Virus record (IMG/VR): IMGVR_UViG_3300030450_003597 | Coordinates: 1-52,299 of that record | Source of the DNA: a virus | Taxonomy: Duplodnaviria; Caudoviricetes | DNA: 52,299 nucleotides | Direction: 5' to 3' (one strand) | Part shown: positions 161 to 27,400 of the stretch, one piece after another | Position numbering within the stretch: the stretch's first letter is position 1 | How the letters are laid out: each line of letters opens with the position of its first letter | Made by a program: the position numbers and the translations under genes | The notes under the pieces: generated by a model | Told to the model about the DNA's origin: nothing | Databases searched by the model: none | What the model saw: only the letters and a program-made list of their open reading frames with translations

Positions 161-331
161 ATGGTAAATACACCGAAGATTTTTAAAGATTTATATGAAA
201 GCCTAAGTACATGGAAAGAATGCGATATTTGTGGGTATATGTGTAGTCCAGATAAAGTAAATACTCAATCAATAGAGTCTGAAAATTATGGGTATCACGA
301 TTATAAAATTTGTGATGATTGTGATAGTTAA
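161..331 (+). CDS. Small Zn-ribbon-like protein (56 aa)
   Basis: Not in the ORF track. AAGGAG RBS upstream; CDIC and CDDC motifs. Confidence 0.7.
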   Translation: MVNTPKIFKDLYESLSTWKECDICGYMCSPDKVNTQSIESENYGYHDYKICDDCDS

Positions 332-340
332 ACAAAAGAA

Positions 341-480
341 TTAGTAAATTATAAATAACGAAAACAGTTGAGCGCTGCCTGGCATAAACCCCAGTGATGT
401 GGAGAGAGAATATATAAAGGCATTTATATGTTCTTGGCGATAACTCTAGTCCCACTTAAAAGGTATTTATAATTTACTAA
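341..480 (+). ncRNA. Putative structured RNA element closed by a 17-bp perfect inverted repeat
   Basis: TTAGTAAATTATAAATA (341-357) pairs with TATTTATAATTTACTAA (464-480). Internal hairpins include AGAATATATAAA/TTTATATGTTCT. Intergenic. Confidence 0.5.
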
Positions 481-641
481 ATAATTGTAAATAGTTAAAT
501 AATGAGTTTATAGGCTTGATAAGTTACCTTCTACAAATACTTGTGACGACTCATCAAATATTGCATATGTTGCCTATAGCGTATGCAATAAGGTATTATT
601 ACTAAAAATAACTCTTAAAAATAGCATAAGGAGGGCTTAAA

Positions 642-1263: not shown

Positions 1264-1337
1264 TTAAAGAGGTAGAATCTAATGCTATTATACGGCTTTT
1301 ATGTTAGCGAAAATAGAATCCAATGCTACCTCTTTAA
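1264..1337 (+). ncRNA. Putative structured element closed by a 12-bp inverted repeat
   Basis: TTAAAGAGGTAG (1264-1275) pairs with CTACCTCTTTAA (1326-1337). Internal direct repeat TAGAATC(T/C)AATGCTA. Confidence 0.45.
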
Positions 1338-1393: not shown

Positions 1394-1684
1394 ATGATGG
1401 TTTTAAGTATGATGTTAAGTGTTTTAACAATAACAACAGAGTATTCATTTTCAATTATCAAAGTAAATGAAATCCAAGCGATTGAACTGGTAGATAAAGA
1501 TGATGGTGGTATATTAAGTATTACATTAAAAGGTAATAAATCAGAACAAATCATTTATGCTGAAGATAATAAAGATAAATGGGATTATGTTAAGAAATGG
1601 ATGGAATCAAATATCTTAAATATACAAGATGTAATGAGTAGTCAAGATGTATTAAGACATAAAGATACACATCCAGGATTCTAA
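1394..1684 (+). CDS. Hypothetical protein
   Basis: Track ORF 1301..1684; likely true start at 1394 after AAGGAG. Confidence 0.7.
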   Translation: MMVLSMMLSVLTITTEYSFSIIKVNEIQAIELVDKDDGGILSITLKGNKSEQIIYAEDNKDKWDYVKKWMESNILNIQDVMSSQDVLRHKDTHPGF

Positions 1685-2128
1685 AATTTAGAGAGATGAG
1701 GAGCTATGTAGACACATAGGCTTGGCTTGTAGGGATTCCGAGAAGGGTCACCTGTAATGGTGAGTGTAATCTCTCTAATAAAATTGCTAACATACCAAGG
1801 CAGAAGAGAAGAAGGCTATAGCGCTCATTATGCAAGTATGTAAATTATAAACCGAGGTGATGGTGGGAGATAGTTGTATAATGAATATAATAAAGTAATT
1901 ATACTATTATCGAGGAAAAAGTGTAGGTTTATATAAAATTTAGAGAGATAATGGCGTATGGTGCATCATGGACAGGCATGTCTTCGGTATCGATGCTGTT
2001 ATCTCTCTAATAAAATTAAGGCAGTGTGTCTGTTATCGCGAGAGCAGCAACGGGTTTTATAGCATATAGGTTAATATTACCTTTTCGGTGCTATCCTTTC
2101 ACCTGTGTTTAGCACTGCCTTATAACTT
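1682..2128 (+). ncRNA. Tandem array of five stem-closed structured units separated by (T)AAA(A)TT linkers
   Basis: Closing stems: 1688-1697/1769-1778, 1790-1795/1836-1841, 1846-1853/1926-1933, 1940-1951/1999-2010, 2017-2026/2113-2122. Units 1 and 4 share identical flanks. Confidence 0.65.
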
Positions 2129-2144
2129 AAGAAAGGAGGCATTT

Positions 2145-2849: not shown

Positions 2850-3053
2850 ATGTCTATAAAAATCAATCTATTAAATAATGGTGAGTTCACATCACGAGAT
2901 GTATCTGCAAGTAATGTTGGAGATTTAAGGAATGAATTAGAAATTCCTACATCAGCACAAGTTAATGTTGGTGGAACTATCAGACAAAATGATTTTTCAT
3001 TGTCTGAAAATGATTATGTAGCATATACATCTAACAATAAAGTAGGAGGTTAA
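2850..3053 (+). CDS. Ubiquitin-like beta-grasp protein (ThiS/MoaD-like size) ending in di-glycine
   Basis: 67 aa with a beta-grasp-like pattern and C-terminus NKVGG. In an operon with JAB and E1 genes. Confidence 0.85.
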   Translation: MSIKINLLNNGEFTSRDVSASNVGDLRNELEIPTSAQVNVGGTIRQNDFSLSENDYVAYTSNNKVGG

Positions 3054-3055
3054 TT

Positions 3056-4612
3056 ATGAGCGATAGTATAACTTTCGATAATGGATTAACAGTTTTAAAT
3101 GTTAATAATTTAGATGTATTATCTGAACCATCTCAAGAGTTGGCTAATGCTATCGCTACAGGACCTCAAGATGAATTCTTTCAATTGTTAGAAAGTACTA
3201 ATGGGCTTATTAGGAGATTATCAGCAGGTAGAAATTATTATAATCAACCTGTTGATAATTCTCTTGATGTTTCCATTACACCATCTTGGAATTGGCGACC
3301 AGGAACTTACGATAAAATAAGAGAGCTAACGATAAAAATGCTACAATTAGAAAAGCGTAGTAATGGAGTATATAATTTCATTAAAAGAACAAAAGATAAT
3401 GCAGAATGGACTATGCATACTTTATTACGCAATTTTGATGAACTTGAGAGCTTGAAATCTACATTAAAATCAGAGAATTACCCATATAATGTTGATGTTA
3501 ATGAATATACAGATAAATTAAAATCATTTAGTACATCTGTTATAGAGCAATGTGAGAAAGTTGAAGAAACATTCCAAAACATATCTATAAAACCTTATAT
3601 TCATATAAATCAGGATAATACAAGAAATTCTATGTTTTATTTAGATGTTACATTAAATGAGCTAAAAATGAATGTATTTCATCAAAGAAATAAAATACAA
3701 GAAATTGCTTTAGAGCCTATTAGAATAGTTATTTATAACAAATTAAGGCATACTATGGCCAATTACTTGAAAAATTCTAGAATAAATAATTATTCATTTA
3801 GAGGAGTATATCAAGCAGAAGAATATCAGTATTTTAGCACAGACGATGGTGGAAGAAGTTTTAATTTTCCATATATTGCAAAAGCTAGATATAGGTATGA
3901 TAACCAAAGATATGATTATCAAACAGTATGTTTAGATAAATATTTAGATGATATTAAAAATAATCTAAGTAAAGTTGAATACATGCCAATGATAATGAAT
4001 TTAATGTCTTGGGCTACATATTATAATACTGAATATTCAAATCCTTATAACCAACCTTACGAATTGCATTTTGGTATGCCTGAATATATGAGCAGAGAAT
4101 ACAAATCAACATTTGCTAATGCATCTGATAATTGTTCAAATAGATTAGCGCGTACATATGGATTACATTCACAGCCATCTTTATCATATAAATATTTAAA
4201 TAATGGTATCGATATGATTAATAATGAATGTGATAGGATAAAATGCGTTTGGAGAGAAAATTGTGGAAAATATAGGACAATAAAACGCAATTTCGAATTA
4301 GTTAATAATGAAGATTTGAGGAATCAAGCTGAATCTTTATTAGGATTTATTCAATCTTTAGATGATTGGATGACAATTTTTAGAGATTATTATGGAGCAG
4401 TAGAAGATGATGATGAAATATTATTAAATCTTTTAATAATAAATTATAATCGTGGTAATACTCTACATGGAAATCAAATATTAACTGATTTTGGTTATTT
4501 TGACAAAGAAAATGAAGATAAGCTGGAAGATAGAGATGGAGAAGGTTCAGTACCAACAAGAGAGCAAATACAACAGAGAATGTTGCAATGGGCAACAGAA
4601 AGGAGTATGTAA
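3056..4612 (+). CDS. Putative E2 (UBC-like) conjugating-enzyme domain protein
   Basis: FPYI...VCLDKY...helix...YN...NPYN mirrors the UBC signature HPNI...ICLD...PN..DP.N. Candidate catalytic C292. Lies between the Ubl and JAB genes. Confidence 0.6.
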   Translation: MSDSITFDNGLTVLNVNNLDVLSEPSQELANAIATGPQDEFFQLLESTNGLIRRLSAGRNYYNQPVDNSLDVSITPSWNWRPGTYDKIRELTIKMLQLEKRSNGVYNFIKRTKDNAEWTMHTLLRNFDELESLKSTLKSENYPYNVDVNEYTDKLKSFSTSVIEQCEKVEETFQNISIKPYIHINQDNTRNSMFYLDVTLNELKMNVFHQRNKIQEIALEPIRIVIYNKLRHTMANYLKNSRINNYSFRGVYQAEEYQYFSTDDGGRSFNFPYIAKARYRYDNQRYDYQTVCLDKYLDDIKNNLSKVEYMPMIMNLMSWATYYNTEYSNPYNQPYELHFGMPEYMSREYKSTFANASDNCSNRLARTYGLHSQPSLSYKYLNNGIDMINNECDRIKCVWRENCGKYRTIKRNFELVNNEDLRNQAESLLGFIQSLDDWMTIFRDYYGAVEDDDEILLNLLIINYNRGNTLHGNQILTDFGYFDKENEDKLEDRDGEGSVPTREQIQQRMLQWATERSM

Positions 4613-5532
4613 TGGAACTAAGTCAAATGTTTCATATCAGAGAGAAAAGCTGGTATGAAATAATATCTTGGGCTAAGTTAGCATATGATGAAGATAAAAA
4701 TGAAATATCAGGCTTAGCTACAGCAGTACCTGATAAAAATGGATTCTTTATTATTGGCGATGTAGAAATAATGAAACAAGAAAATAGTGGCTCTAATACA
4801 GAGTTAGATGGAGATGCAGTTACAGCATATAAAATGAAATATGGGATGAAACATAAAAATCCTAATATGAAATTTGTATGGTGGCATTCACATCATACTA
4901 TGGATGCGTTTTGGTCAGGAACTGATAAGCAAGAAATAGATGCCTGGGAAAATGATTCTTTTTCATTAGCTCTTGTTATTAATCTTAAAGAAGAATATAA
5001 ATTCAGAGTAAGTATTTGGAAAGCTGCTGGATTAAATATAGCTCAACATTATGATATTCCATTAAATATATTAAGAAAAAATGGAGTAAATGTAACAGAT
5101 AAAATGAAAGAACAATATGAAGAACTTTGTTCTGATAAACATACATATGTTAACAATCATAATAACTGGAATAATAATTATCAAACAACAATATGGAATA
5201 ATGGCTTTAAAGCTAATATGCCTAATTGGAATGATATGAGCAAATATTCCAAGACACTTGAGTTAATAGAGAGCGCTATGGATGAGTTTATGAGCGATTC
5301 ATTGTCATTTAAAGATTTTAATGACCAAATGAAATTCTTAAATAGTGAAATTAAAAATCATAAAATTAAGGATTACAAGATAAAGATTCCAAAAGGCTCT
5401 AAACAAGCACTAATAAATAAGTTAAGTAGTATCTTTCCTGAAGAGTTATTAGAATTTAAGGATAATGATACAAAAGAGGCTTATCAAAATCAAACTGATG
5501 TTTGGGGAGGTAATTATGGCTACTTACATTAA
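4612..5532 (+). CDS. JAB/MPN+ (JAMM) metallo-isopeptidase
   Basis: NEISG Glu and WWHSHHTMDAFWSGTD (HxH-x7-S-x2-D). Start at 4612 by TAATG overlap with an AGGAG RBS. Confidence 0.9.
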   Translation: MELSQMFHIREKSWYEIISWAKLAYDEDKNEISGLATAVPDKNGFFIIGDVEIMKQENSGSNTELDGDAVTAYKMKYGMKHKNPNMKFVWWHSHHTMDAFWSGTDKQEIDAWENDSFSLALVINLKEEYKFRVSIWKAAGLNIAQHYDIPLNILRKNGVNVTDKMKEQYEELCSDKHTYVNNHNNWNNNYQTTIWNNGFKANMPNWNDMSKYSKTLELIESAMDEFMSDSLSFKDFNDQMKFLNSEIKNHKIKDYKIKIPKGSKQALINKLSSIFPEELLEFKDNDTKEAYQNQTDVWGGNYGYLH

Positions 5533-6199
5533 TACACGCTCTAGTGGATTAATAGATAGTCTTAATAAGCATTCTTTTCATATACTGGGCTGTGGAGCTA
5601 TAGGTAGCTCTGCAGCTACCCAGTTATGTAGAATGGGAGCAGAAAACTTCTCTTTATATGATATGGATAAAGTAGAAACACCAAATATAGGTGTATCTCA
5701 ATATAATCAATGTCATATTGGAATGAATAAGACATCTGCTTTAAAGCAACTATTAATTGATATTAATCATGAAATAGATGTAACTGAACATTTTGGTTTA
5801 TTTAGCAATTATTATTGGAATAGTAATAATGATATTATCATATTAGGATTTGATAGTATGAAATCAAGACTAGAATCAATGGAAATATGTTTAGCTAAAA
5901 GACCAAATTGGCATGAAAGCAAGCCTTTAATGGTAATTGATGGGAGGATGGGAGCCGAGCATTATCAACAGTATACCTTTTTATCTCCTTCTATAGATAA
6001 ATATAAAAAAACATGGTATTCTGATGATGAAGGAAGCTCTGAACCATGCAACATGAAAGCAACAAGCTATTGCTCTAATATGAGTGGAAGTTTTATAGCA
6101 AATACCGTTCGTAAAGTGCTAACTAAGCAACCTTATGAAGCCGCTTTGTCATTTAATTTTCCTACTACAATATTAGAGAAAAAGACCTTGTATAAATAG
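5516..6199 (+). CDS. ThiF/MoeB/E1-like adenylyltransferase
   Basis: ILGCGAIGS, DMDKVETPNIG, DGRMG, and candidate catalytic Cys in EPCNMKA. Start at 5516 after GGAGG. Confidence 0.92.
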   Translation: MATYINTRSSGLIDSLNKHSFHILGCGAIGSSAATQLCRMGAENFSLYDMDKVETPNIGVSQYNQCHIGMNKTSALKQLLIDINHEIDVTEHFGLFSNYYWNSNNDIIILGFDSMKSRLESMEICLAKRPNWHESKPLMVIDGRMGAEHYQQYTFLSPSIDKYKKTWYSDDEGSSEPCNMKATSYCSNMSGSFIANTVRKVLTKQPYEAALSFNFPTTILEKKTLYK

Positions 6200-12502: not shown

Positions 12503-12687
12503 TTAAATGCTCAAAATGTAAAGAGTTAATAGGGCCATCAGCGCCTTGTTATAAAGCATCAAGGGGTTTTATGGATAGTGATGGAGTGTTCTATGAAGAT
12601 GAAACTATAGTTTTACACATGGAATGCTATTATCATTATACATTTGACCCTTTTGATGAAATAGAAAAAAATATAAAGAATAGTTAA
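12499..12687 (+). CDS. Small Zn-binding protein
   Basis: CSKC...HMEC. Last gene of the + arm; converges on the RNAP gene. Confidence 0.6.
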   Translation: MIKCSKCKELIGPSAPCYKASRGFMDSDGVFYEDETIVLHMECYYHYTFDPFDEIEKNIKNS

Positions 12688-15600
12688 TATAAAGACATGC
12701 CAGGAGTAGGAGGAGTATAATCAGATTCTCTTATTCTTTTTGCTTCTCTAGCCATTCCAGTTAATGGAAATCCAACTACTTTCTCAGGGAGCCTTAATGG
12801 GTTATTTAATAATCCAGTTTCAGGATGAGCAACATCCCTTATCATTCTACCAAATGGGAACATAGTCCACATATAATAATCAGATAATTTAGTATAATCA
12901 TCTTCAGCAAATTCTCTTATTACAGAGATAGGAAATCTTGCTATAGGAGGAGTAATCATTTGAAGAGGGGCTACAGCTCTAGGATAAGTACCAAAGAAAG
13001 CTCTATCTCTTTCTTTTTCATCACCAAATAGCCATTCTGATGTATCCTGTAACCAATTCCAAGGGGCAGGGAGTACTTGTTCAAATAATGAGTACATGAA
13101 AACTGAAGATAAAGCAAGAACAAATAAATCAGTAGTCATAGTTCTTTCAAATCTTTTCATAGCTTCAGTTCCTGGAGTATATCCATATAAACGAGCTTGT
13201 TTTCTTATATCATTTCTAAATCTAACAGCATTCCAAGACCATAATTGGAATCTTGACATAATTTTACCTAAACCAGAACGAGCAAATGCTGGTCTAAATG
13301 GAGCATTATATAAGAATTGTGTAGCTTTGACACCTTTTTTAGCTATTTCTATAAGATAAGGATGATTTGGGTCTTGTATAGAACCTCCAAATCTTTCCCA
13401 TGCTTTAATATAATGAGCCATAAAAGAATCTCTTCTTAACATTCTTTCAGGTATAGTCATAAATGCAGCAGCTTTTTTCATAACAGCATCTGTAATACCA
13501 TATTTTTTAGAAAGTGCAGTAAAATCTATATCTTTTACTTTTGCATCACTTTTTGATATTTCTATAAGTTCATTTGCAAAAGCTTTACCTTTACCTTCTC
13601 TAAATTCTTTATGTAATCCAAATTCATGTTGTAAAAATTCAGGCTGTATTCCTAAATCAGCTACAAAATCATTAATAGCTTCTTTGTTTTTCCATTTAGG
13701 ATTAATAGTTTGTAAAAAAGAAATATCTCTTGCTTTTCTTAAAGGCTCATAACCTACTGATTGAAATGTATGCATAGTACCACCAAATACATTATTAATC
13801 ATAGTTTTAGGATGAGTCATTAAAGTAGCTAATTGATATTTACCTTCAGTATTAGCAAGACTTCTTATATTATATGCATCTAATCCACCTATAATAATAT
13901 CTTTATCTTGCTTTTTAGTTATATCAATTTCTTTTATTGGGTCTTTGATTAAACCTAATTTTTCACCAATTTTATTTAGTTTTTTAGCAACAAGATTGTC
14001 AGCAAACCAACTATAAGGAGTGCCTTTTAATTTTAAATTAGGATTATCTAATTCAGCTTGAGATAACATTACTGGATTACCCATAGCTTCACTAGCATAC
14101 TTTTTCCAAAAAGTAACCCAGCCTTTAACCATTTCTCTAGCTTCTTTTTTATCCTTTTGAGATGCAGGTGTAACCCATTTTTTATTCATATGTTCCCTCA
14201 TATTATGAAGAGTATATCTAGATACTAAATTCCCCATTTGTCTAAAATAAGTATTTGTTAAGTTTCTAATATAAACTTCAACAGAGGTAGGGTCAACCAT
14301 CCATCCACCCATATGATTATCTCTTGCAAACATATTACCAAATCTCATATTTACAGAAGGAAGTTTAGTAGTTTCTTGTTTGCTTAATTCTTTCTTTTCA
14401 AGTTTAGTTAAAGTTTCTTTAAATAAATCAGCATCTAATTTATTCCACATTTTATAGTCAGCAAAATCCCAATCTCCAATTCTTGTTTTATATTGAGTAA
14501 TAAGTTTTTGAATTTTAGCTTGCTTTTCTTGTTTAGTAAGCGTTTTATCGCTTAATAACATATCTTTTTCATTCTTTAAAGATTGCTTTAATTTCTTTTT
14601 ACTATGAAAATAATGAGGGAAATAACCTTTTCTATATCCTGTGCTATTTATAACTAAGTCCTCATATTCCCTAGCTTTAGCTTCCTTGTCAGGTCTCCAT
14701 TTTGCTTGTTCAAGTTTGGATAATTTCCAATAATCTTCAGTGTTAATCTTTTTAACTTCACCTTTAACAAATCTAGTATATTCAGTAGGAGGAAGTAAAT
14801 CTATAAACATAGAACGAGTCATATGTCTCATTCCATCAACACCTATACCTAAAAATTCATCAACTTTTTTATCTTTAGATGATAATAATTGCCCTTTTTT
14901 ATAAGCTATATCTAAATCATTAATAAAGGATTTATAGTCTAAAATAGGCTGAGTTTGTTTATCAGGGTCATACCAGCCTGTTCTATATTTAGATAAAGCC
15001 CCAGGTCTACCTCTTATAATACTGTGATAATTCTCCATTAAACCTTCTAATTTATTCATTGTATAATCTATTAATTCGTGACCATTATACTTTTTTCTAA
15101 CCCCATCTAACTCAACAACATAGTTTTTATTTCTAATTTTAAAATAATTGTTATTCTTTTGAGAATCTTTCCAATTTTGTTCATATATCTTTTCACCAGA
15201 ATCATGGAATTGTTTTAACTCACTTTTTCTAACAGCAAGACGCCACATAGCATCGCCATCTTTAGTTTGGTTTAAATATTTAAATGAATCTTGAAAACTT
15301 CTTATCAATTCTTCAGATTTACCATAAGATAAATCATGAGTTCTACTTATCCAATTCTGTAATACTTCTCCATAATAAGTAGGTCTATACATTTTACCTA
15401 TTTTTGCAATACCATCTTTTGTTTGAAAATATCCTTCTGAAGGAAGGAATTTCATATCATTAGATAACATCTCAGCATCTATTTGTTTAGGGAATAAAAG
15501 ATGATGCCTTCTTTTTAATCCAGCTTTTTTCAAATTATCTAAATGTTTTTCCATTTGTTGAAACATATTACCGCTTCTTACAAATTTGAAATAATTATTT

Positions 15601-18600
15601 ATCAACTTATAATCTTTAATATTCATTTGATTTAAAGTTTTAGGAGGAACATCTGAAAAAGGTTCATGCATAGTACTATAAATACCAGATAATAATTGAC
15701 TTATATCTTTTCCTTTAGCATCAGAATAGAATTTTAAATTCTCAAATAGTTCCTTAACAATCTTCTTATTTTCAGGAGTAGCTTCAACATTGCCTTTCTT
15801 AATACCTTGATATGCATCAATATCATTTGTAATATTTGCTGCTAATCTTATATCTCTTTTATTTATAAGCGGGTCAATTTCTTTTTCGAAAGATTCTATA
15901 TCTACCTCTTTATAAGGCTCCATAGATTTAAGATAATATTTATTTTTAGTTTTAAAGAAGTTCATTATATTCTTAGAACTAACAACTTTAGAATCGAATG
16001 CAGCTTTAGTAGTATTTGTTTTAGCTCCTTGTTTATATAAATCAGTTAAAGTTATCTTTTCTAATTTATCTTTATTAGGCATTTTCATATACTTATCAAT
16101 AGATTTCTGCATTTCAGGACTTCTTAAAGAGCCAATATACAGATTATCAAATACATCTCTTGCTGACTCCGAAGGTAAGGATTCCTTGTATTTTAATATT
16201 AAATTATCTAAAGTAGCATTGTCAACTAATTTTGTTCTTCTCTCTAATCCTTTAAGATTAATAGGACTTTTCAAATTTAAAGCTTCATGTAAAGATTTTA
16301 TATCTTTCAATCTATTTACTTCTTGAGTTGACTCAGATGGAACAAATTCCCCTCTATTGCTTCTCATTTTATGTTGATAAGCATTAATACTTTTAAATTC
16401 TTCTACTTTAGCTCTTATTTGAGCCATTAATTCATTAGTTAGACCTTCACCTTTTTCATAACTTTTTTCATAAATATCAACTATTCTATCAAGAGTAGTC
16501 ATATTATGAAAAGCATTAGATAGATAATCTTGAGAATCACTTAATAATTTCCTAAGATAGCCTTCTACTTCTACTTCATTTAGAGGGTCTTTGATATTAT
16601 GTCTTATCTTACTAATACCCAATTCTTTAATTAAAGATTTACCATCCTTAGACCAAGATTTAATATTTTCTTCAATAAATAAATCATTTTTAAGTATGAA
16701 GTCAACTTGTTTACTAGGTTCTTCTACTAATTTTGTTCTACCTAATAATTGTTTATAGAAATCTAATTTCTTAGCATATACTTCATGTTTGTTATATAGT
16801 TTTTTATAAGCATTAAAATCAATTCTTTTAAATAAAGATATATCCATATCTACGTTTCTAAGAGTATTGGCAAATTTCATAGTACTAGTTGTCATTTCAT
16901 TACTATCATAATTGTTTATTCTTTTGCCCATCATTTTTTTCTCAAATGGAGTATAACCTCTATTTAAATCCCAATTTCTACTAAAATAAGCAGCATTAAA
17001 ATTCCTAATATCATTATATCTTTGATGATTTTGAGTTTTTCCTTCAATTCCATAAGTTGGAATCTTTGATAAATTAATCCATTTTTTAGTTTTTTCATTA
17101 TATTTTTGAGGAGTAATTTTAAAATAAGCTTCTCTTAATAATGATTGCATCTTAGGAAATTCTATTAATCCAGTTTCATTTGCTGGGTCAGCTGTGAAAT
17201 TAACTAAAGCTTTACTTAAATCTCTTTGTTCAGCACTAGCTTCTTTAGGTTCTAATATAGTCCTATATTTTACCCCATCTTTAAAGATTCCTTTTTCAAA
17301 TACATCAAACTTATTATTACTATGCTTTAAAGAGCTCCATGCAGCTCTCATATGAGATGTCATCCCGACTACTGGTCCCATTTTACCTCTACTCCTGGCA
17401 TGTTCTTGTCCAACAAACATTCGTACAGCAGGAGAGAATCTAGCTAATGGGTTTTTATTTACTTGGTCTAAGAAATCAGGATTTAAACCCCTATCTTTTA
17501 CATCTTTTCTTGATATAACAATTTTATCTCTATATTGAGTTTTAGCATCTTTTATATTAGTCTTATCTTTGGTATAAAATTCTTCTTTTTGTGCTTTATA
17601 CATATCTTTCCAGCTTTTTTTCATACCTTCGCCAGTACCATCAGCATGCCTTCCTCCAAAATATATAAAAGATTCATCTCCATCAAGGTCAGCTCCACCT
17701 TGAGCCTCCATAGACCTTCCGTGAGATAATACTCCATGGTCTTTAATACCAGTAAATCCAGCAAATCTTTTAACTTGAGCTCCTGAAGGTGAATCCTGAG
17801 GTACTCTTACATTGATTGCTTCAAATATATCATCAAACTCTTGTTTGTATTTCTTAAATTCAGGCATATTTTTAACAGACCACAATTTGCCTAATGTAGT
17901 TTTTTCTAATCTAGGAATATTAGTATACATAGGAGTATCTTTATATAAGTCTCCAAGATAGAATATATCATCTTTTTTGTTTAACTCAGGAAACTTTTCC
18001 TGTAAAGATTTATCATAAGGTCTCATCCTGGCTACAATAGCATTTTTCATCTTAGGTCTTAAAACTCTTTCAGCTACAAATCTATCAATAGAAGTATGCA
18101 CATAATCTTTAGTATATTTATCAAAAAACATTGGATAAGCATCTTCCATTTTAGATAAATGCTTAATAATATTATCAGCTGTAGAGTAAAAATCAACTAA
18201 ATTCCTACTTTGTTCTTCAGCTTGAGTTCCAGAGTTTTCGCCTTCATTTCTAGACATTTCTAGAGATTCTTTATTTGTTTTAAGTATCTTTAAAAGCATT
18301 TCTTGAGCTAATTTTTCCGAACCAGGACTTTTCAATACTTTCTCTACAGATTTAATACCAACATCATCAAAGTTTTCTATAATGTCTTTTAATATTTTAT
18401 CAGAAGGTTTTTCTAAATAAGAATCAACTAACTTATTATATTCAGTCTTCCCATCAAACGACCTTTGTGCTATTTCATTATAAAGATTATCGATAGTCTC
18501 TTGGCTAACCTTAGAGTACATATCAGGATGAAGGTTAGTAAGCATTTGTTTTACAAATGTAATGCCTATAGGTTTACCAGCTTCATTTTTACCAAGCATT

Positions 18601-21600
18601 TTATGGTCATTGATAACAGAATGAGAATATCTTAAATCTCCTGGGTTTATTTCAATAATTTCTTTAGCTCCTCCAATAAGCTCTAAAGGTTTACCTTTAA
18701 TATAATTATAATCACCTGGAATCCTGTCTCCTGTTTGTTTAATAGCACTTTCCATCATAAGAAAATTAACGCCTTCTCCATTATTAGCTTTTTCCATAGC
18801 TTTAGTTAAGTCAGGACCAGCTTTATGAATCATATATTTACCAAGTATAGTTCCTTTAGGATTCTTTGATATAATAAAAGACTTATTAGAACCTGTATAT
18901 GGAACTCCTGCATCAAGATTAATAGCATCTACAACTGCATCTGTTGCTATAATAGCTCCATCAACATGCTGAGGTAGTTTTACATTTAAAGCTTTTAATA
19001 TATTATCTATCTTTACGGGGTCAGCAATAAGAGAACCTTTATAGTTACCATCTCTTTTACCTAAAGCTATTTCATTAGCATGATTCTCTCTAGATGCTAG
19101 ATTTTTTATAGCTTCATTTTCAGGTAAAAAATGAGCTTTTTCATGTCTAATTACAAAATCTTCCCAAGATTTATAACTTTTGAAAATATTTTCAGGAAGA
19201 GGATTTACTCCTTTTACTTTAGGTTTTATCCACACTTTATTATCATAATCTTCTCTAAGTTTATCTTTATCAATTTTAATTGCTCTATTTTTCTTATCTG
19301 TTTGCGCAGAAACAAATCTGTCTGAAACAGTTGATTTTATATTCTTAGAATAAACTATCTTTAAATCAGGTAATTTAATTTTAGATAATTTTAAATCTGC
19401 ACCTGTATATTTAGGATTATTAATAAATTCTTTATCTCCTTTAATACCATTAGTCATCCATATTTGAGCTCTTTTATTATCTGCAACAGCATTTTGTATA
19501 AATCCAGGATTATTTATCATTTTATTTATAGGCATACCATTTAATTGCTCTTGATATGCTATAATAGATTTCATCATATTATCATGCTCTAATCGATTCA
19601 TACCATATAAATCTTTAGCAGTCTTATAAATAGAAGGAGGTAAATTTACTTTCTTTGTTTTCTTATAATTTGGATGATACTTAACAAATATTATTCTATC
19701 TTTATCGCCTACTCCACCATATGGATGATAACCTTTTTTACCCATCTTTTTTATAGTATTTGATATAAAGTCCTTTTTAATTGCTTTTTGCTCTAATGAA
19801 GTACCCTCTCTTCTTGTAGCATATTCAAATTTAGATAAGTCATAATCCACGCCTTTATAAGTAAGCGCATCTAATATAGCATATTCAAATTCTTTTGGAG
19901 GCTCTATTACTAATTTTGATTTACCTCCCATTGTATATGGATTTTCTTTATCTGTTAGCTCAACCTTTTTACCATCTGTATTTATAAAACGAACAGCCTC
20001 TCCTTGATTTTGTACAGCAATCCACTGTCTCATTTTACCTTTTAAGTCAGTTGGTAGTTGCATATTAAACTCTTGTTCTATAGCTTCTACCCATTCTGGA
20101 GACCTATTTTTAGTTGAACCTCTTTCTATGTATTCAGGGGCTAATTTACCAGCAGATTTTGATATTTTAACTATCATATCATCTCTTTCAACAGAGCTTT
20201 TAATAGTCTTTTTTAATTCAGGTCTTAAGTAGGTTTGCATAAAATAAGACATTTTATTATCAATAGGGCTAGTATAGAATTCACCTGCATCTCTAACATC
20301 ATTTGTCTCAATATCAAGAATATCCTGTTTTTTATCTATTTCTGCATCAATTTCAGCTTTAAAGCCCATTTTATCCCATTTTTGGAACAAAGACTCTATA
20401 GCCTGCTTCTCACCTATGTCAATAGCTTTCTTTCCAAAAAAGGCTACTCTAGGGCTTAATTCAGGAGTTTTAGCTGTTGTAATGAATTTTTTACTACCTT
20501 TATCATACTTAAGCCATTGCTTAGTTTTATCATAAACATACACCTCTTTACCTGCATCAATACCCATTTGAATTGCATATTTAGATAATCCTTTAGTAGC
20601 AGTCATTTTATCATTTACTTTGTCTACTGATATAATTTGGTCTGAGAATTTAACATTAACGAAATCTCTTCTCATTCCTTCTTTAGCATATTCAGATAAT
20701 CTTCCTATCCTAACCTTTTCTCCAGCTTTATTTAAATTTTCTATAGCAGTATCAATACCTTTATTAGCTTCAACTAGATACTTTCTTTCTATAGTAATTG
20801 ATTCATTAGGCTTACCATAAGTCTTTACTTGGTCAGGGAATTTTGTCTCTACAGAAGATATATCTCTTTTTCTAGCACTCTCTAATACTTGTGCTTGAGT
20901 TCCAGTTTCTCCAGTAGTCATAACATAGTATCTAGTAGGGTCTGGTTTAGAAGCTTCTTTGATAGATTCTCTAATTATTTGTTTTTGTTGTTTTTGAACT
21001 TCTTTTTCTATTTTATCAGCAACTTTAAATACTTCAGAGCGAACATCTTTTCCAGATTTTTGAAGCTCTTCCATCTTAGGAGCCATGCCTTCTACTTCAG
21101 CTCTCCTATAGAGTTCATAGGTAGCTGCTTCTATTTCCTCTGGAGTACCTCCAGCCATACCTGGTCCAGAAGTAATTTTTAAAACCTCTTTTTGAACTTC
21201 AGGTTCTACTTTTTCCCAACCTTCATATAGTTCTCTTGGGTCATAAGTTTTTCTATGAATAGGATTATCACTTTTTTCAGCTTTCTCTCTAACCTTTTGA
21301 GCAATAGGCATAGCCTTAGCTACAGTCCAAGGTTTTTCAGAACCACCAAAGTATGCACCCATAAGATATTCATATACTTGTTCAGGAGTTGAAGCTCCTC
21401 TTGCAGTTGCAGGTAATCCCATAAATAAAGAACCTGCTAAACCTCTTGCAAACTTCTCTGCCTTAGGGTCTTGCATGTTTATTTGATTTCCAATACCTCT
21501 AAATACACCACCAGCTATAGCTCCATGAAAGAAACTATCAAGCATAACATCTACACCACCTTGCCAAGCAGATATAGCACTTGCAGTACCTAGGTTGAAA

Positions 21601-22148
21601 GCACCTTCAGCTATATGTTTTGCTTTTCCTGTAGATAGGAATTTAGCTGCATCTTGAAATGCTTGACTCTTAGCCCCTATTCCAGCTTTTAATCCAGCAT
21701 TAGCTACTTTAGCGGCTCTAGGAGTAATATATTTCTCAGCTACATATAAAGGAATACCTTTTTTACCTTGAAGGAATTTAGCGCTATCTAATAAGGTTCT
21801 ACTTTTAGTAGTCATACCAAGGAATTTAAGAGGACCAGCTAATATACCAGGAGCAAATCCAGCTAAGTGACCTACACTTTTAGCTACTGCTTCCCAAGCA
21901 TTATCTGGAGTATCTTTAGATACATTTAAAGTAGTAAAGCCTTCTAGGAATCCTGCTCCAGCATATTTAATAGCATCAATAATAGAAAAATCCCCTTCAT
22001 AAAAGGGGACATTATGATATTGAGCATGTTGCCTTACAGATTCTAATCCTTGAGGACTAAAATTAGAAGGATTCTTTTCATATGATTTTATGAAATCTCT
22101 AGTCTGAGATTTGGTATAGGAAGGACTCCATTGAGAAGTTTCTGCCAT
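12684..22148 (-). CDS. Giant virion-associated two-barrel RNA polymerase/ejection protein (3154 aa)
   Basis: RVP followed by GADLDGD (D1487-D1491; nt 17676-17690). Upstream HVDG and ESAIK motifs. Ala/Gly-rich hydrophobic N-terminus; last gene of the virion arm. Confidence 0.8.
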   Translation of the reverse strand: MAETSQWSPSYTKSQTRDFIKSYEKNPSNFSPQGLESVRQHAQYHNVPFYEGDFSIIDAIKYAGAGFLEGFTTLNVSKDTPDNAWEAVAKSVGHLAGFAPGILAGPLKFLGMTTKSRTLLDSAKFLQGKKGIPLYVAEKYITPRAAKVANAGLKAGIGAKSQAFQDAAKFLSTGKAKHIAEGAFNLGTASAISAWQGGVDVMLDSFFHGAIAGGVFRGIGNQINMQDPKAEKFARGLAGSLFMGLPATARGASTPEQVYEYLMGAYFGGSEKPWTVAKAMPIAQKVREKAEKSDNPIHRKTYDPRELYEGWEKVEPEVQKEVLKITSGPGMAGGTPEEIEAATYELYRRAEVEGMAPKMEELQKSGKDVRSEVFKVADKIEKEVQKQQKQIIRESIKEASKPDPTRYYVMTTGETGTQAQVLESARKRDISSVETKFPDQVKTYGKPNESITIERKYLVEANKGIDTAIENLNKAGEKVRIGRLSEYAKEGMRRDFVNVKFSDQIISVDKVNDKMTATKGLSKYAIQMGIDAGKEVYVYDKTKQWLKYDKGSKKFITTAKTPELSPRVAFFGKKAIDIGEKQAIESLFQKWDKMGFKAEIDAEIDKKQDILDIETNDVRDAGEFYTSPIDNKMSYFMQTYLRPELKKTIKSSVERDDMIVKISKSAGKLAPEYIERGSTKNRSPEWVEAIEQEFNMQLPTDLKGKMRQWIAVQNQGEAVRFINTDGKKVELTDKENPYTMGGKSKLVIEPPKEFEYAILDALTYKGVDYDLSKFEYATRREGTSLEQKAIKKDFISNTIKKMGKKGYHPYGGVGDKDRIIFVKYHPNYKKTKKVNLPPSIYKTAKDLYGMNRLEHDNMMKSIIAYQEQLNGMPINKMINNPGFIQNAVADNKRAQIWMTNGIKGDKEFINNPKYTGADLKLSKIKLPDLKIVYSKNIKSTVSDRFVSAQTDKKNRAIKIDKDKLREDYDNKVWIKPKVKGVNPLPENIFKSYKSWEDFVIRHEKAHFLPENEAIKNLASRENHANEIALGKRDGNYKGSLIADPVKIDNILKALNVKLPQHVDGAIIATDAVVDAINLDAGVPYTGSNKSFIISKNPKGTILGKYMIHKAGPDLTKAMEKANNGEGVNFLMMESAIKQTGDRIPGDYNYIKGKPLELIGGAKEIIEINPGDLRYSHSVINDHKMLGKNEAGKPIGITFVKQMLTNLHPDMYSKVSQETIDNLYNEIAQRSFDGKTEYNKLVDSYLEKPSDKILKDIIENFDDVGIKSVEKVLKSPGSEKLAQEMLLKILKTNKESLEMSRNEGENSGTQAEEQSRNLVDFYSTADNIIKHLSKMEDAYPMFFDKYTKDYVHTSIDRFVAERVLRPKMKNAIVARMRPYDKSLQEKFPELNKKDDIFYLGDLYKDTPMYTNIPRLEKTTLGKLWSVKNMPEFKKYKQEFDDIFEAINVRVPQDSPSGAQVKRFAGFTGIKDHGVLSHGRSMEAQGGADLDGDESFIYFGGRHADGTGEGMKKSWKDMYKAQKEEFYTKDKTNIKDAKTQYRDKIVISRKDVKDRGLNPDFLDQVNKNPLARFSPAVRMFVGQEHARSRGKMGPVVGMTSHMRAAWSSLKHSNNKFDVFEKGIFKDGVKYRTILEPKEASAEQRDLSKALVNFTADPANETGLIEFPKMQSLLREAYFKITPQKYNEKTKKWINLSKIPTYGIEGKTQNHQRYNDIRNFNAAYFSRNWDLNRGYTPFEKKMMGKRINNYDSNEMTTSTMKFANTLRNVDMDISLFKRIDFNAYKKLYNKHEVYAKKLDFYKQLLGRTKLVEEPSKQVDFILKNDLFIEENIKSWSKDGKSLIKELGISKIRHNIKDPLNEVEVEGYLRKLLSDSQDYLSNAFHNMTTLDRIVDIYEKSYEKGEGLTNELMAQIRAKVEEFKSINAYQHKMRSNRGEFVPSESTQEVNRLKDIKSLHEALNLKSPINLKGLERRTKLVDNATLDNLILKYKESLPSESARDVFDNLYIGSLRSPEMQKSIDKYMKMPNKDKLEKITLTDLYKQGAKTNTTKAAFDSKVVSSKNIMNFFKTKNKYYLKSMEPYKEVDIESFEKEIDPLINKRDIRLAANITNDIDAYQGIKKGNVEATPENKKIVKELFENLKFYSDAKGKDISQLLSGIYSTMHEPFSDVPPKTLNQMNIKDYKLINNYFKFVRSGNMFQQMEKHLDNLKKAGLKRRHHLLFPKQIDAEMLSNDMKFLPSEGYFQTKDGIAKIGKMYRPTYYGEVLQNWISRTHDLSYGKSEELIRSFQDSFKYLNQTKDGDAMWRLAVRKSELKQFHDSGEKIYEQNWKDSQKNNNYFKIRNKNYVVELDGVRKKYNGHELIDYTMNKLEGLMENYHSIIRGRPGALSKYRTGWYDPDKQTQPILDYKSFINDLDIAYKKGQLLSSKDKKVDEFLGIGVDGMRHMTRSMFIDLLPPTEYTRFVKGEVKKINTEDYWKLSKLEQAKWRPDKEAKAREYEDLVINSTGYRKGYFPHYFHSKKKLKQSLKNEKDMLLSDKTLTKQEKQAKIQKLITQYKTRIGDWDFADYKMWNKLDADLFKETLTKLEKKELSKQETTKLPSVNMRFGNMFARDNHMGGWMVDPTSVEVYIRNLTNTYFRQMGNLVSRYTLHNMREHMNKKWVTPASQKDKKEAREMVKGWVTFWKKYASEAMGNPVMLSQAELDNPNLKLKGTPYSWFADNLVAKKLNKIGEKLGLIKDPIKEIDITKKQDKDIIIGGLDAYNIRSLANTEGKYQLATLMTHPKTMINNVFGGTMHTFQSVGYEPLRKARDISFLQTINPKWKNKEAINDFVADLGIQPEFLQHEFGLHKEFREGKGKAFANELIEISKSDAKVKDIDFTALSKKYGITDAVMKKAAAFMTIPERMLRRDSFMAHYIKAWERFGGSIQDPNHPYLIEIAKKGVKATQFLYNAPFRPAFARSGLGKIMSRFQLWSWNAVRFRNDIRKQARLYGYTPGTEAMKRFERTMTTDLFVLALSSVFMYSLFEQVLPAPWNWLQDTSEWLFGDEKERDRAFFGTYPRAVAPLQMITPPIARFPISVIREFAEDDYTKLSDYYMWTMFPFGRMIRDVAHPETGLLNNPLRLPEKVVGFPLTGMAREAKRIRESDYTPPTPGMSLY

Positions 22149-23856: not shown

Positions 23857-24483
23857 TTATAGATTAACTCCTATTTTCCATGCAAATACTCTTAAATGCC
23901 CAGAAGTTTCTTTTGTCATTGCAGTTCCAGTAGCAGAATGAGTATTGTCATGTATTAATATATGCGGGTCAGCAAATCCTATACTCATATAGCTGTTTTG
24001 CATAAATACTGACATTCCAGTATCGGTATTTGTAGGAGTATTATATAATTCAGCTATTCCTATGTGATTAAGTGAAAATATATCACCTGTATTGCCCGCT
24101 GCATCTCCAGTACTTATTTTTACTCCCGTTCCATTTGCTTTGAAATAGAAATGGGTTAATAGAAGCTTACTATTTAAACCATGGTGAAATTTATACCTAT
24201 TATTAGCTGAAACTGCTGTCCATCCACTATCATAATGAGGTGAAATAACAGGATTTTCCCATCCTTTGTTTGTTCTAACTCTCATTTTATAAGAATTATC
24301 TACTTGTCTTTCTACACTTAAGTCACCACTTTTTCCTTTTGTTTCTGGAATCTCTAATTCAGCAGGATTATTAACAGCATCTTTTAATAGATTTAATTTA
24401 TTTTCAATATCTTGTAGGCTTTTTTGAACTCCATTAAAGTCTTTAATTTTAGTTAATATTTTAATCTTATCAATTGAAAACAT
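23857..24483 (-). CDS. Virion/tail protein
   Basis: YDSGW...HHGL motif common in fibre-associated domains. Confidence 0.55.
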   Translation of the reverse strand: MFSIDKIKILTKIKDFNGVQKSLQDIENKLNLLKDAVNNPAELEIPETKGKSGDLSVERQVDNSYKMRVRTNKGWENPVISPHYDSGWTAVSANNRYKFHHGLNSKLLLTHFYFKANGTGVKISTGDAAGNTGDIFSLNHIGIAELYNTPTNTDTGMSVFMQNSYMSIGFADPHILIHDNTHSATGTAMTKETSGHLRVFAWKIGVNL

Positions 24484-27400
24484 TATTTTGTAGATTTTCT
24501 TCTATATAAAATACCAATTGAATCTAACTCTTTATCCATATTCTCTAATTTAAATTGAAGCCATCTACCTTTTTTATTTGAACTACTTATTTTATATTGA
24601 GAATCATTTGTTGATGTAGAACTATATGTTGTATCGGAATTTGATATATTGCCAGTACTTGTTACTAATAGAAGTTTATTTTGACTATTTGTATTGCTAC
24701 CATCAAGATTTACATTTTCTTTAATTCCATTTAATTTAATCTTATTAAATACTTTGACAATAGAATCTTCACCAACTGTTATCTTTTTACTTACCCATGT
24801 ATAATCTCTATAATCAATTCCGCCTTTATATTCATATATAAAGTCACCTATCGGAATACAAACCTCACCTGCAGTTCCTAAGAATGGTTTACCTACATTA
24901 GAATCTTCGCATAAATCCCATAAATCCCATCTTGATTGAGGTATATTATAAGACCAAACAAAGTACTTTACTGTACTTGCATTGTTTGTTCCCTCTTTAT
25001 GATTTATTTTAAATACAACCAATACGCTAGAAGTAGAAGAGTCTAATATTAAAGAAGGGGGAGTAAAATTTGGTTGATTAACTATATTTTTCCATGAAGC
25101 ATCTACAATATTATCATCTCCTCCTAATAATGAATAAAAATCTGTATCAACTTCTCCACTTTCAGATATAGGTTCGGATATTTTTCTAGGAATAGTACCA
25201 TCATGTAAATATATACCAGTTATATCAACAAAAAACATACCATACTCAGTAACAAGAACACTATATTTGTCTATACAACCTATGCCTTCAAAAATATCTT
25301 CTATTACTAGTGTTTCTTGATTTATTCTATAAATATTAGTACTATCAAAGGCATATAATCTTCCATTAAAGTTAGCTAAGGCAGTCGGTTTAGATTTTAA
25401 TAATATAAAATCATTAACCCAATCAAATAAACTAAACATACCAGGTCTAGACCTGAATAACATATTTGAAGCATTTAATACTTTCTGATGAGAACAATCT
25501 CCTACTATTAAATAACCATCAATTTCAGTTGATATTCCATACTTCATATCAACAGTTTCTAAAATTTCAGACATACCTGTTCTTGATTCATATGTAGCTC
25601 CTAATTTTCCAGTATCTACTATAAGATTGCTCCATACTCCTTCTTCTGATTGACTCCATCCAGTTGCAGTACTAACCTCTTTGACTAATCTAAAGAAATC
25701 AGTAACTCCATTTCTTCTATAAATACAAACATGAGTTAATCTCCTGCTGTAATTCTTTATAGCCAATGTAATATTATAACTCCCTACTGCAGAGTTAGGC
25801 GAATCACTATATAATGTTGAAGATAAAGGACCCTCTTGATAGCCATCATATATAAAAGATATTTTATATTCATATCTAACATCTGTTTCAAAAGTATTAC
25901 CACTTCCTTCTGATGTACTCATACTTCCAGGATTTATTATAATATTATTAAAAGCTGCTGTCATAAACATATCTTCAAATACAGCAGAACTAGAATCATT
26001 TCTAAGTAAATTGAATTCAGAAGCTCCTCTATCCCAAGAATTCCAATTATCTCTTATTTTTGTTATCCTAGATTCTGAGCCATTACCACTTTCAATTAAA
26101 AACATCTCCCAATAATTTGTATAAGCTCTACCTTGTAATACCTCTTCATCTTTATGAGCAACATCAAAAGCATTTGCCCCAGAGGTTGCAATGTCTTTTG
26201 TATTAAAAGTTCCACTTATTTTAACATCCTGTACAGATACATTATCAATATTCCAAGTTATTGTCCCATTATGAGTAGATGAAATAATCAAAGCAGCATC
26301 TGAGCTTGCAACTACTTCCTTACTATAATAAGTTTTAGTAGTAGTGATAGAAAATGTATCAGAAGCAGTTCCGCCTATTCCCATGCTAACATTTGTTAAT
26401 GTTCCACTATCAGTCCAAAGTTCGGCAGTAATTCTATAAGTTCTTGCTGAAACTGCTCTTAAGCTACCTGTTCCAAGAGTCGCTCCTTGAGGGTCAGTAT
26501 CTGCAAGATTTGTTATTACTAAATTCGCAGGACTTCCATCATCACTAAATGTAGGAGCTGAACCATCTGGAGAATACTCTGTCCAATTAGAAGCAGAGGC
26601 AAAAGTTCTATCATTTTCATTTTCAATCATCTCAGATTTAAATGTTACAGTATCTCCATCAGATAACTTATGAGCCGTAGAAGAGAGCCTTAAATCATCA
26701 CTATCATTAGCTGTGACTGAGACTGCATATTCTCTTAATTTTCTCATATTAAATCCACCAAACATTGTTCTATACACAGCTCCACTAAAGTTGAGGGCAA
26801 TAGGATTTTGAACTGAAGATATATTATTAATAATTGGTATTGCATACCAATAAGCATCTGTTATTGCAGTTGTTGTAGATACTGTAAATTCACAAGAACC
26901 TGTGACTGTCACTGTATATCCAGTAGGATTTGGAATTCCAACCTTTCTAATCCAAACTTTATCTCCAGTAGTTAAACCATGCTGATAAGTGCATGTAACT
27001 ACGCCACTTCCAGAAACACTACATTTATTTCCTTCTGTTTCAGGTAGTTCTAAATAAGAGCTAGAAGAACCTATATTATCAGATATACTATATGTCCATT
27101 CTCTTTTCATTGGAAGTTTAGCTATAGGGTCTCCTATATAAGCATTATTAGGAGGATAATTATTATAATTTACTAGACCAGTAGTTGAATTTGTAAATTC
27201 AAATGGAATAGTTTGCTGCTTAGCTAGTCTTACAGGAGCAGTGCAAGCTTGCCATGGAGTCCATATATAATAATAGTCATTAATAGAAGGATTATGTCCA
27301 AATGGATAATGGACCATTACATATATAGCATCACTAGTAGCAGAGCTTCCTTGAGATTTACTATCAACAATTTGTCTTGTTTGAATGCATCCTGTTTCTT

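Follow-up and report, generated by a model that had tools for sequence, protein, structure and literature searches.

A modular array of stem-closed, RNA-like units in the early region of a marine phage genome

The array and its relatives

The sequence studied here, referred to as the window, is the entire IMG/VR record IMGVR_UViG_3300030450_003597, a linear genome of 52,299 bp (Caudoviricetes) that is rated 100% complete. Its G+C content is ~32%. As far as ~12.5 kb the + strand carries early and replication functions, and structural genes occupy the minus strand. The subject of this study is a tandem array of five stem-closed units, U1 to U5, which occupies 460 gene-free bases between the stop codon of a conserved open reading frame (ORF) of 95 amino acids (aa) at 1397-1684 and the ribosome-binding site of a basic 35-aa ORF whose ATG is at 2145. 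An earlier note, made from the sequence alone, had described 1682-2128 as a non-coding stretch tiled by five such units and had taken them for elements that function as RNA on the + strand. Folding and comparison with related phages agree with this description: the units are separate modules, they belong to the + strand and they are under selection at the RNA level.

The minimum free energy fold of 1685-2130 consists of exactly five top-level helices, U1 to U5, which span 1688-2122 and are separated by AAATT linkers (Table 1). The sub-hairpins predicted by the earlier note (CTATGT/ACATAG, TCACC/GGTGA, ATAGCA/TGCTAT and a GCGA loop) are all present in the folds, and 1685-2087 contains no + strand ORF of 40 aa or more. 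U1 and U4 have identical ends around unrelated interiors, as had been noticed. The exact sequence TTAGAGAGAT occurs four times in the 52 kb, both strands counted, and all four occurrences are the TTAGAGAGAT/ATCTCTCTAA arms of U1 and U4. The similarity between the two interiors is within the range of shuffled sequences, with 324 of 1000 shuffles reaching the global alignment score and 192 of 1000 the local score. AAATT is present in all five of the linkers that precede a unit.

To judge the folding, free energies were compared with those of shuffled sequences. With a free energy of -127.2 kcal/mol (z -3.89), the fold of the whole array was not equalled by any of 100 shuffles. The reverse strand folds at -92.0 kcal/mol with a z of -3.62, so free energy alone cannot pick the strand. 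For the single units, U1 to U5, the z values were -2.99, -0.28, -3.05, -6.70 and -3.47. The expectation that the units fold better than shuffled controls is therefore borne out for the whole array and for U1, U3, U4 and U5, while U2 (z -0.28) is not thermodynamically special and its support is its conservation instead. When the closing stems were taken off, the z values of the interiors became -0.72, +1.07, -2.63, -1.64 and -1.67, which suggests that thermodynamics backs mainly the closing stems. The strand is indicated by U4, whose stem reaches the predicted length of about 18 bp through three G-U pairs. On the opposite strand these three pairs are A-C mismatches and the 18-bp extension is lost. 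The reverse complement of U4 folds at -19.1 kcal/mol, compared to -34.9 kcal/mol for the + strand, and this points to a function at the RNA level on the + strand.

Neither a CRISPR array nor a tRNA gene was found, as the earlier note had maintained. ARAGORN reported no tRNA gene in the window, the Rfam tRNA model RF00005 had no match at E values up to 10 in 1200-2600, and TRF detected no tandem direct-repeat array in 1685-2128. The sole direct repeats are two-copy families made up of linker and stem arm, of which families D1 and D4 are 16-17 nucleotides (nt) long; the regular repeats expected of a ToxI-like type III antitoxin array are likewise absent. A search of the window with Rfam 15, whose families include riboswitches and ribozymes, gave no match at the gathering score; the best sub-threshold hit in the region scored 20.7 bits against a cut-off of 55, and nothing credible appeared at E values up to 10. 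No terminator-like site and no + strand sigma-70-like promoter were predicted in 1685-2130.

GenBank phages gave no DNA match to 1300-2300, and the TerL protein of the window is less than 30% identical to those of cultured phages (~27% at most among the matches listed). The first relative, L118/G001 (52.7 kb), was reached through a 518-aa protein encoded downstream of the array (68% protein identity). Patterns based on U5 and on the shared arms led to L141/G004, L119/G002 and L121/G003 and, by the same route, to four contigs from metagenomes (L144, L145, L146 and L147); L146 hardly differs from the window. L235 was reached by a U2 pattern, and ten further contigs by an alignment of four homologues of the 518-aa protein. 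The clade analysed below comprises 19 marine phage contigs, namely the window and 18 relatives, with the near-identical L146 left out. Pattern searches of the collections catch exact pattern matches only. The U5 stem pattern returned 22 stretches, two of them real, and a degenerate version returned 89; 87 loci were run through the U5 model described below and L235 alone scored. The U2 pattern returned four stretches, among them a chance match in coding DNA (L241). A 15-mer of linker plus arm matched at least 116 stretches in IMG/VR, all of them single chance matches.

Table 1. Positions of the units, linkers and neighbouring features in the window
Feature	Position	Strand	Description
Gene-free stretch	332-640	+	Stem-closed elements; 17-nt arms at 341-357 and 464-480; hairpin at 559-590; partly conserved in L118
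U0 (outside the array)	1264-1337	+	Closed by TTAAAGAGGTAG/CTACCTCTTTAA; T-rich run after it
Linker before U1	1682-1687	+	TAAAAT, the next T opens the stem; AAATT site; overlaps the stop codon of the 95-aa ORF
U1	1688-1778	+	91 nt; 10-bp stem TTAGAGAGAT/ATCTCTCTAA; four-way shape predicted
Linker U1/U2	1779-1789	+	TAAAATTGCTA; has AAATT site; GCTA part conserved with U2 in relatives
U2	1790-1841	+	52 nt; stem ACATAC/GTATGT
U2 palindrome	1815-1822	+	8 nt, GCTATAGC, in a 15-nt apical loop
Linker U2/U3	1842-1845	+	AAAT(T)
U3	1846-1933	+	88 nt; stem TATAAACC/GGTTTATA
Linker U3/U4	1934-1939	+	TAAAAT(T)
U4	1940-2010	+	71-nt long hairpin; 10-bp ends of U1; stem of 18 bp with three G-U pairs
Linker U4/U5	2011-2016	+	TAAAAT(T)
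U5	2017-2122	+	106 nt; 11-bp stem
GNRA tetraloop	2038-2041	+	Caps helix 2 of U5; GCGA here, GTGA or GTAA in relatives
TCCTTT	2094-2099	+	Invariant in 14/14 U5 sequences; unpaired 3' strand of the internal loop that separates helices 3 and 4
Tail after U5		+	TAACTTAA
Ribosome-binding site of the 35-aa ORF	2130-2139	+	AGAAAGGAGG; longest Shine-Dalgarno match in the window

Conservation of U5, U2 and U3

Of all modules, U5 is conserved best. It was found in 14 of the 19 clade contigs, as 14 distinct sequences, by a covariance model based on six sequences, and all model hits are on the gene strand. The motif has ~113 model positions and 30 base pairs. In the 14-sequence alignment, 94.4% of the cells are paired and 25 of the 30 pairs show compensatory changes, figures that are somewhat inflated by the fitting of the alignment to the model. 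None of 500 shuffles reached any of these measures, and pairing in slid registers was 37-49%. With a set of eight sequences, 20 of the 30 pairs were compensatory. U-G pairs are retained at two helix positions, in 9/14 and 8/14 sequences. The U5 hairpin pattern gave no hits in 185,579 species genomes, a search in which only exact arms count. This comparative evidence indicates that U5 is a conserved structured RNA and a new motif.

The U2 hairpin was found in seven contigs, with an invariant ACATAC/GTATGT outer stem and, in five sequences, three compensatory pairs in the inner helix. In the window its apical loop carries an 8-nt palindrome, which in relatives is replaced by GTCTAGAC, ACTGCAGT or ACTATAGT. 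The loop is palindromic in all four versions: all four pair positions vary and complementarity is kept. The two central bases are adjacent and unable to pair within one molecule, which points to pairing between two molecules. The variation of the palindrome, which amounts to four variants, thus points to U2 loops that may pair with each other.

U3 is present in at least four contigs, twice in G002, and five sequences were aligned. Its closing stem has three compensatory pairs and the purine-rich strands of its internal loop (CGAGG... and CGAGGAAAAAGTGTAGG) are conserved, while the central hairpin differs in sequence and length among relatives. A second copy of the 3' end of U3, AAAAAGTGTAGGTTTATGTAA, lies ~110 nt downstream of the first in G002 (L151, ~14470-14600, minus strand), where it overlaps the end of a small Cys-rich ORF. 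This repeat is possibly a trace of recombination between units. Overall, the covariation that the earlier note had proposed to look for in relatives is strong in U5 (25/30 pairs) and present in the small alignments of U2 and U3, while U1 and U4 have no informative homologues to support their interiors.

Conservation of the units is on a par with that of the neighbouring genes. Between the window and L118, conservation was 0.982 for U2, 1.0 for the 3' arm of U3 and 0.853 for U5, compared to 0.80-0.96 for five ORFs. In contrast, the order and content of the array vary. U2 is upstream of U5 in the window and downstream of it in L367. ORFs lie between units in L144, L147, G002, G003 and L235. A tRNA-Met(CAT) gene, scoring 56-62 bits against a cut-off of 29 bits, is found in the arrays of 4/19 contigs, namely L118, L141, L144 and L147, and in the first two it immediately precedes U5; tRNA was the only Rfam match in the relatives at E values up to 0.5-1. 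L144 has an extra unit between tRNA-Met and U5 that is flanked by CAACAA repeats and is missing from L141. Gains and losses of units, which had been suggested as a check on the array, fall exactly at the AAATT linkers. The variable order and content, together with the ORFs or tRNA-Met between units, suggest that the units are independent modules rather than parts of one large RNA.

The array could nevertheless be imagined as a single ornate RNA of the GOLLD or ROOL kind, with the units as its domains. GOLLD and ROOL are phage-encoded and often near tRNA islands, according to the cited account (10.1101/2024.12.08.627333), tRNA-Met directly precedes U5 in two relatives, and the self-complementary loop of U2 recalls RNAs that form multimers. 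Set against this are the changing order and content of the units, the ORFs between them and the predicted folds, which include no long-range helix between units. The GOLLD and ROOL models also had no match in the window at E values up to 10 or in the relatives at E values up to 0.5-1. We consider a single large RNA very improbable.

U1, U4 and the TTAGAG...CTCTAA closing stem

U1 and U4 are missing from L118 and L145 and are shared only with the near-identical L146. They have no homologues beyond it, and their interiors are therefore without covariation support. In L118, the TAAAATT of the 95-aa ORF runs directly to U2, leaving the slot of U1 empty. The insertion is exact: TAAAATT is followed by GCTAAC in L118 and by U1, a second TAAAATT and GCTAAC in the window. 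The slot of U4 is filled by an unrelated 50-nt unit in L145 and by this unit plus tRNA-Met in L118. The 50-nt unit, GYGAGATGTGC...GCAAAAGATT, lies between U3 and tRNA/U5 (L118 5083-5132, L145 281-330) and is not found in the window.

To determine how common such closing stems are, we scanned for stems of at least 9 bp that begin with TTA[AG]A[GC]. Seven were found in the window, whereas 30 shuffles averaged 1.1. The stems of U0, U1 and U4 are bona fide, and the remaining four are weak and inside coding sequence. Clade-wide, there are at least 18 bona fide TTAGAG...CTCTAA units (14 plus four from a second scan), with stems of 10-18 bp. All 18 are on the gene strand and in early regions devoid of genes, and TAA follows 16 of them. 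The first 5-6 bp of the stem, TTAGAG/CTCTAA, are near constant. The exceptions are TTAAAG in one unit, where CTTTAA compensates, TTAGAC/GTCTAA in two units and pairing through G-U in two. From stem position 7 onwards the sequences differ and covary (GAT/ATC, GCC/GGC, GGT/ACC, AAT/ATT, TAA/TTA), and the closing stems of L144 and L118 have G-U pairs on the gene strand.

The interiors of the 18 units are of many unrelated types, so constant flanks around variable interiors are a property of the whole clade and not just of two units. The orthologue of U0 in L118 has the same stem, with G-U pairs, and a different, longer interior. The unit after the TTGTCAAA motif has different interiors in G002 and L235. 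Even phages with over 90% identity in the flanking genes carry different cassettes. G002, G003 and L141 have one type of interior in common, whose conservation is mostly at the level of primary sequence.

Such a pattern could also arise at the DNA level if U1, U4 and the other TTAGAG units were miniature inverted-repeat mobile elements or recombination cassettes, with terminal inverted repeats and a duplicated TAAAATT target accounting for the constant flanks and no RNA function needed. The exact presence or absence of U1 at the linker, its perfect 10-bp terminal inverted repeats and those of U4, the CAACAA repeats around the extra unit of L144 and the different interiors at one locus in G002 and L235 all suit this explanation, and Correia elements, in the published description, can be co-transcribed and bind RNase III (PMC2649163). 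However, mobile families are multi-copy, while no interior here is common to two copies. The exact 7-nt flank repeat is found only at U1 and U4 (2/14 units), where it is the general linker of the array, and is absent or partial at the other 12 of the 14. Beyond 6 bp the stems keep their pairing through G-U and compensatory changes, which is selection of the RNA type, and the divergence of the unit type found in G002, G003 and L141 parallels that of its phages. Pfam and PHROGs scans, which covered part of the ORFs, showed no transposase. Mobile elements are therefore an improbable explanation in our view.

The 185,579 species genomes were also searched for these ends. No U1- or U4-type copies were among the matches listed; those for the TTAGAGAGAT pair, searched with exact arms only, are Collinsella repeats and a few chance matches. 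With the flanks included, the TTAGAGAGAT pattern gave one unrelated repeat region. Apart from such unrelated repeats, the matches listed thus include no copies with these ends and flanks. Many Collinsella species have clustered TCTCTCTAA/TTAGAGAGA repeats in both orientations (L242-L321, for example L242 680-860). This conserved cluster looks iteron-like and is unrelated to the phage units.

The same repeats bear on a further alternative, in which the units are DNA signals such as an origin, operator or iteron sites, or PeSL-like repeats that mediate recombination only. The array is an A+T-rich, gene-free region upstream of the replication genes for a Sak4-like ATPase and a DnaB-like helicase, ATCTCTCTAA-type words are the clustered repeats of the Collinsella genomes, and the 16-17-nt direct repeats of linker and arm could support recombination in the style of PeSLs, as far as these are described (PMC4122927). 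DNA sites do not account for the compensatory changes and one-strand G-U pairs in five U5 helices and in the closing stems. In addition, the arms are 50-110 nt apart and, beyond 6 bp, vary in sequence from unit to unit, and no + strand sigma-70-like promoter is predicted in the array. We regard signals of this kind as highly unlikely.

Collectively, the constant stem and the swapped interiors point to a common recognition factor and to rapid evolution of accessory elements, as is typical of host-phage conflict. One reading, which we offer as speculation and consider unlikely, is that the UUAGAG...CUCUAA(UAA) stem is a handle that marks exchangeable RNA cassettes and is read by one common factor. 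Such a factor might come from the phage or the host and be an RNA-binding protein or a processing enzyme. The swapped interiors would then give specificity, for example as decoys for host proteins of defence or RNA metabolism, and beside the cassettes U5 would act as a mimic of the anti-Shine-Dalgarno strand and U2 through self-pairing of its loop. If true, the cassettes would be an RNA counterpart of integrons or guide arrays.

A separate repeat was observed near some of these units. The sequence ATTGTCAAA(C/T)AT is present in three direct copies within 210 nt in G002 (L151, ~15090-15300, minus strand), each preceding a unit or an ORF, and in G002 as in L235 (~7790, minus strand) a TTAGAG-closed unit follows one copy. 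It is possibly a clade-specific promoter. In the window, the form TTGTCAAAYAT seen in G002 and L235 does not occur beyond chance.

Possible function, related systems and neighbouring genes

The clade contains at least three new RNA motifs (U5, U2 and U3) and a new family of cassettes with a constant handle. We propose that the units are small stable RNAs that are co-transcribed with the early genes, cut at the AAAUU linkers and act in trans during host take-over, and we assign this proposal a probability of about 0.5. A long early transcript from the + strand would carry all modules and would be cut in its single-stranded A/U-rich linkers. The core cleavage motif of RNase E, as reported from Salmonella (PMC5222698), is RN↓WUU. 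AAAUU fits this motif, and RNWUU is found in all 5/5 linkers ahead of a unit, its background frequency being 0.034 per nt. Where tRNA-Met is present, its maturation would necessarily cut the precursor beside the neighbouring unit. The paired 5' and 3' ends of the freed RNAs would shield them from exonucleases and so confer stability. In trans, U5 would base-pair through its exposed UCCUUU with Shine-Dalgarno sites that contain AAAGGA(G), U2 would possibly be dimeric through its self-complementary loop, and the variable UUAGAG-closed cassettes would be strain-specific accessory RNAs. The repertoire of the clade is shuffled around a core of U5, U2 and U3, with U1, U4 and many other UUAGAG-closed units as accessories.

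The proposal for U5 starts from the complementarity between its UCCUUU and the AAAGGA of phage ribosome-binding sites. A core Shine-Dalgarno site is present in 33/46 genes of the window and extends to AAAGG in 11. The UCCUUU strand also resembles the pyrimidine strand with which the ribosome reads Shine-Dalgarno sites. That U5 acts through pairing of UCCUUU with Shine-Dalgarno sites, in cis or in trans, is a possibility that we put forward tentatively. Covariation together with an exposed 6-nt strand makes such translation control testable, and the covarying palindrome does the same for the dimerisation of U2.

The position of U5 gives weight to a different explanation, namely that the units are cis-acting elements of an early polycistronic mRNA which set its ends, protect the small ORFs beside them from nucleases or are processing sites of the RNase III type, and that U5 is a translational operator or riboswitch-like leader whose UCCUUU sequesters the downstream ribosome-binding site. 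No free small RNA would then have a function. Indeed, the units lie between small ORFs of the same strand with no predicted terminators between them, and a terminator-like T-rich run follows U0. A Shine-Dalgarno site follows U5 at ~10-25 nt in 9/14 cases, although the downstream gene differs, with at least four different families represented. In the window, UCCUUUC can pair with the GAAAGGA of the ribosome-binding site at 2130-2139. In the other 5/14 cases, however, U5 is followed by another module rather than by a ribosome-binding site; this module is U2 in L367, is U3-like in G002 and is of another kind in L368, L369 and L370. The five tandem modules of the window have no ORF between them, and the slots that hold units also hold a tRNA gene. 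The multi-helix fold of U5, with its invariant loop and GNRA cap, exceeds what a nuclease barrier needs. We regard an exclusively cis-acting role as possible but rather doubtful.

Several points weigh against the proposal of processed, trans-acting small RNAs. Both the transcription of the array and its processing are steps that we infer. Nothing shows selection on the interiors of U1 and U4, and U2 and the interior of U1 fold no better than shuffled sequences. AAATT is common in a genome of 32% G+C, the linkers may recur through duplication and so not be independent sites, and the RN↓WUU consensus from Salmonella may not be that of the RNases of the host. ATAAAATT is not enriched genome-wide (15 found, 17.2 expected); the linker was also rejected as a promoter on this count. 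The window has no tRNA gene, the pair counts of U5 carry the inflation mentioned above, and the nine U5 copies that abut a ribosome-binding site suit a cis-acting leader equally.

The earlier note had listed antisense or guide RNAs among the possible products of the array. For action on the phage's own genome this found no support: the longest sense or antisense match of an interior to the rest of the window is 10-12 nt, which 49-177 of 200 shuffles reach, and this candidate was rejected. Its interpretation therefore stands in part, with support for modular, RNA-level elements of the + strand and none for guide action on the own genome.

We compared the array with known systems, and none of them agrees with it in full on testable defining features. 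The nearest kind is that of small structured phage RNAs associated with tRNA genes. RNA C and RNA D of phage T4 ('species 1 and 2') are small stable RNAs of phage tRNA gene clusters. We know of no function for these two RNAs or for GOLLD and ROOL. Like the modules here, the T4-type RNAs are phage-encoded, non-coding, compact, 50-140 nt long and located beside tRNA genes, and in both cases the RNAs are presumed to be released by host RNases from a multi-gene precursor. Unlike T4-type clusters, the window has no tRNA and only 4/19 clade contigs have one; moreover, shuffling of modules between close relatives is seen here, and many of the modules have a closing stem of constant sequence. Phage RNAs other than tRNA can be RNase P substrates, M3 RNA and C4 RNA being described examples (PMC11143913). 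GOLLD and ROOL share with the units here that they are phage-borne, near tRNA genes and strongly covarying, and the loop of U2 hints at self-association; in the cited account, one marine GOLLD is preceded by a Met-tRNA upstream, and the GOLLD linker can contain tRNAs (10.1101/2024.12.08.627333). By that account each is one RNA, 580 to >800 nt long and fixed in its architecture, in contrast to separable modules of 50-130 nt in variable order. The present clade offers small, tractable cases of the puzzling structured phage RNAs that occur near tRNA genes.

In their swapping behaviour, the units appear by analogy nearest to PeSL cassettes and Correia-type elements. PeSL cassettes of T4-type phages likewise consist of short conserved motifs at swap points in hyperplastic early regions (PMC2839356, PMC4122927). 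As described there, PeSLs are direct repeats with a promoter and a terminator that flank swapped protein genes, whereas the motif here is inverted and its payload non-coding, and no PeSL-type promoter and terminator were predicted on the + strand of 1685-2130. Correia elements, in the account available (PMC2649163), are ~70-150 bp long, have terminal inverted repeats, are intergenic and co-transcribed and form hairpins recognisable by RNase. They differ in being multi-copy with a conserved core, whereas the units here have unique interiors, inconsistently duplicated flanks and compensatory or G-U pairing.

TIGR arrays with Tas resemble the array in being tandem stem-loops in phages with palindromic ends and variable inner parts, and they are reported to be processed into one RNA per unit (PMC12045711). 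The 36-nt or dual-spacer format given in that source is unlike the structured interiors of 35-110 nt found here, with ends common to some units only. A six-frame search of the complete record for the Nop domain (PF01798) gave no matches, while the control was found in four archaea, and TIGR-Tas was rejected. Similarly, no Y RNA/Ro module was detected, as judged by a Pfam search for TROVE among 20 early-region proteins and by the lack of an Rfam Y RNA match. The UCCC motif of the Rsa RNAs of S. aureus is, as described (PMC2790875), an exposed pyrimidine strand complementary to Shine-Dalgarno sites, like the UCCUUU of U5. The scaffold of U5, with its several helices and GNRA cap, is unrelated to that reported for the Rsa RNAs.

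From the ORF maps, we estimate that about one third of the first 2.85 kb of the window is non-coding and given to elements of this kind, an unusual share for a phage. The gene-free interval 1255-1396 holds U0, which is followed by the T-rich run and a TATAAT-like box. Tiny Cys-rich ORFs with CxxC...CxxC motifs, resembling zinc ribbons, are found among the RNA units of the window (161-331 and 642-728) and are likewise interspersed with units in L141, L144, L147, G002 and G003. The 35-aa ORF directly after U5 (2145-2252) consists almost entirely of Lys, Arg, Glu and Asn. It follows U5 also in L145, not in the other relatives, and might encode an RNA-binding peptide.

Further downstream, the operon at 2850-6199 begins with a 67-aa ubiquitin-like (Ubl) protein that ends in GG (2850-3053). 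Its start lies 728 nt after U5, in agreement with the distance of about 700 nt given in the earlier note. L118, G002 and G003 were the only relatives in which this 67-aa ORF was observed. The operon also encodes a ThiF-family E1-like protein (E 3.8e-20), a 314-aa protein that is weakly JAB-like (E 0.0013, below the cut-off) and the 518-aa protein, which has no Pfam or PHROG match and is kept in all 18 related contigs. On the minus strand there are two giant ORFs, at 12684-22148 (3154 aa) and 24483-33848 (3121 aa). The sole Pfam match in them is a faint one to E1_FCCH, below the cut-off, and they might include a polymerase that is packaged in the virion.

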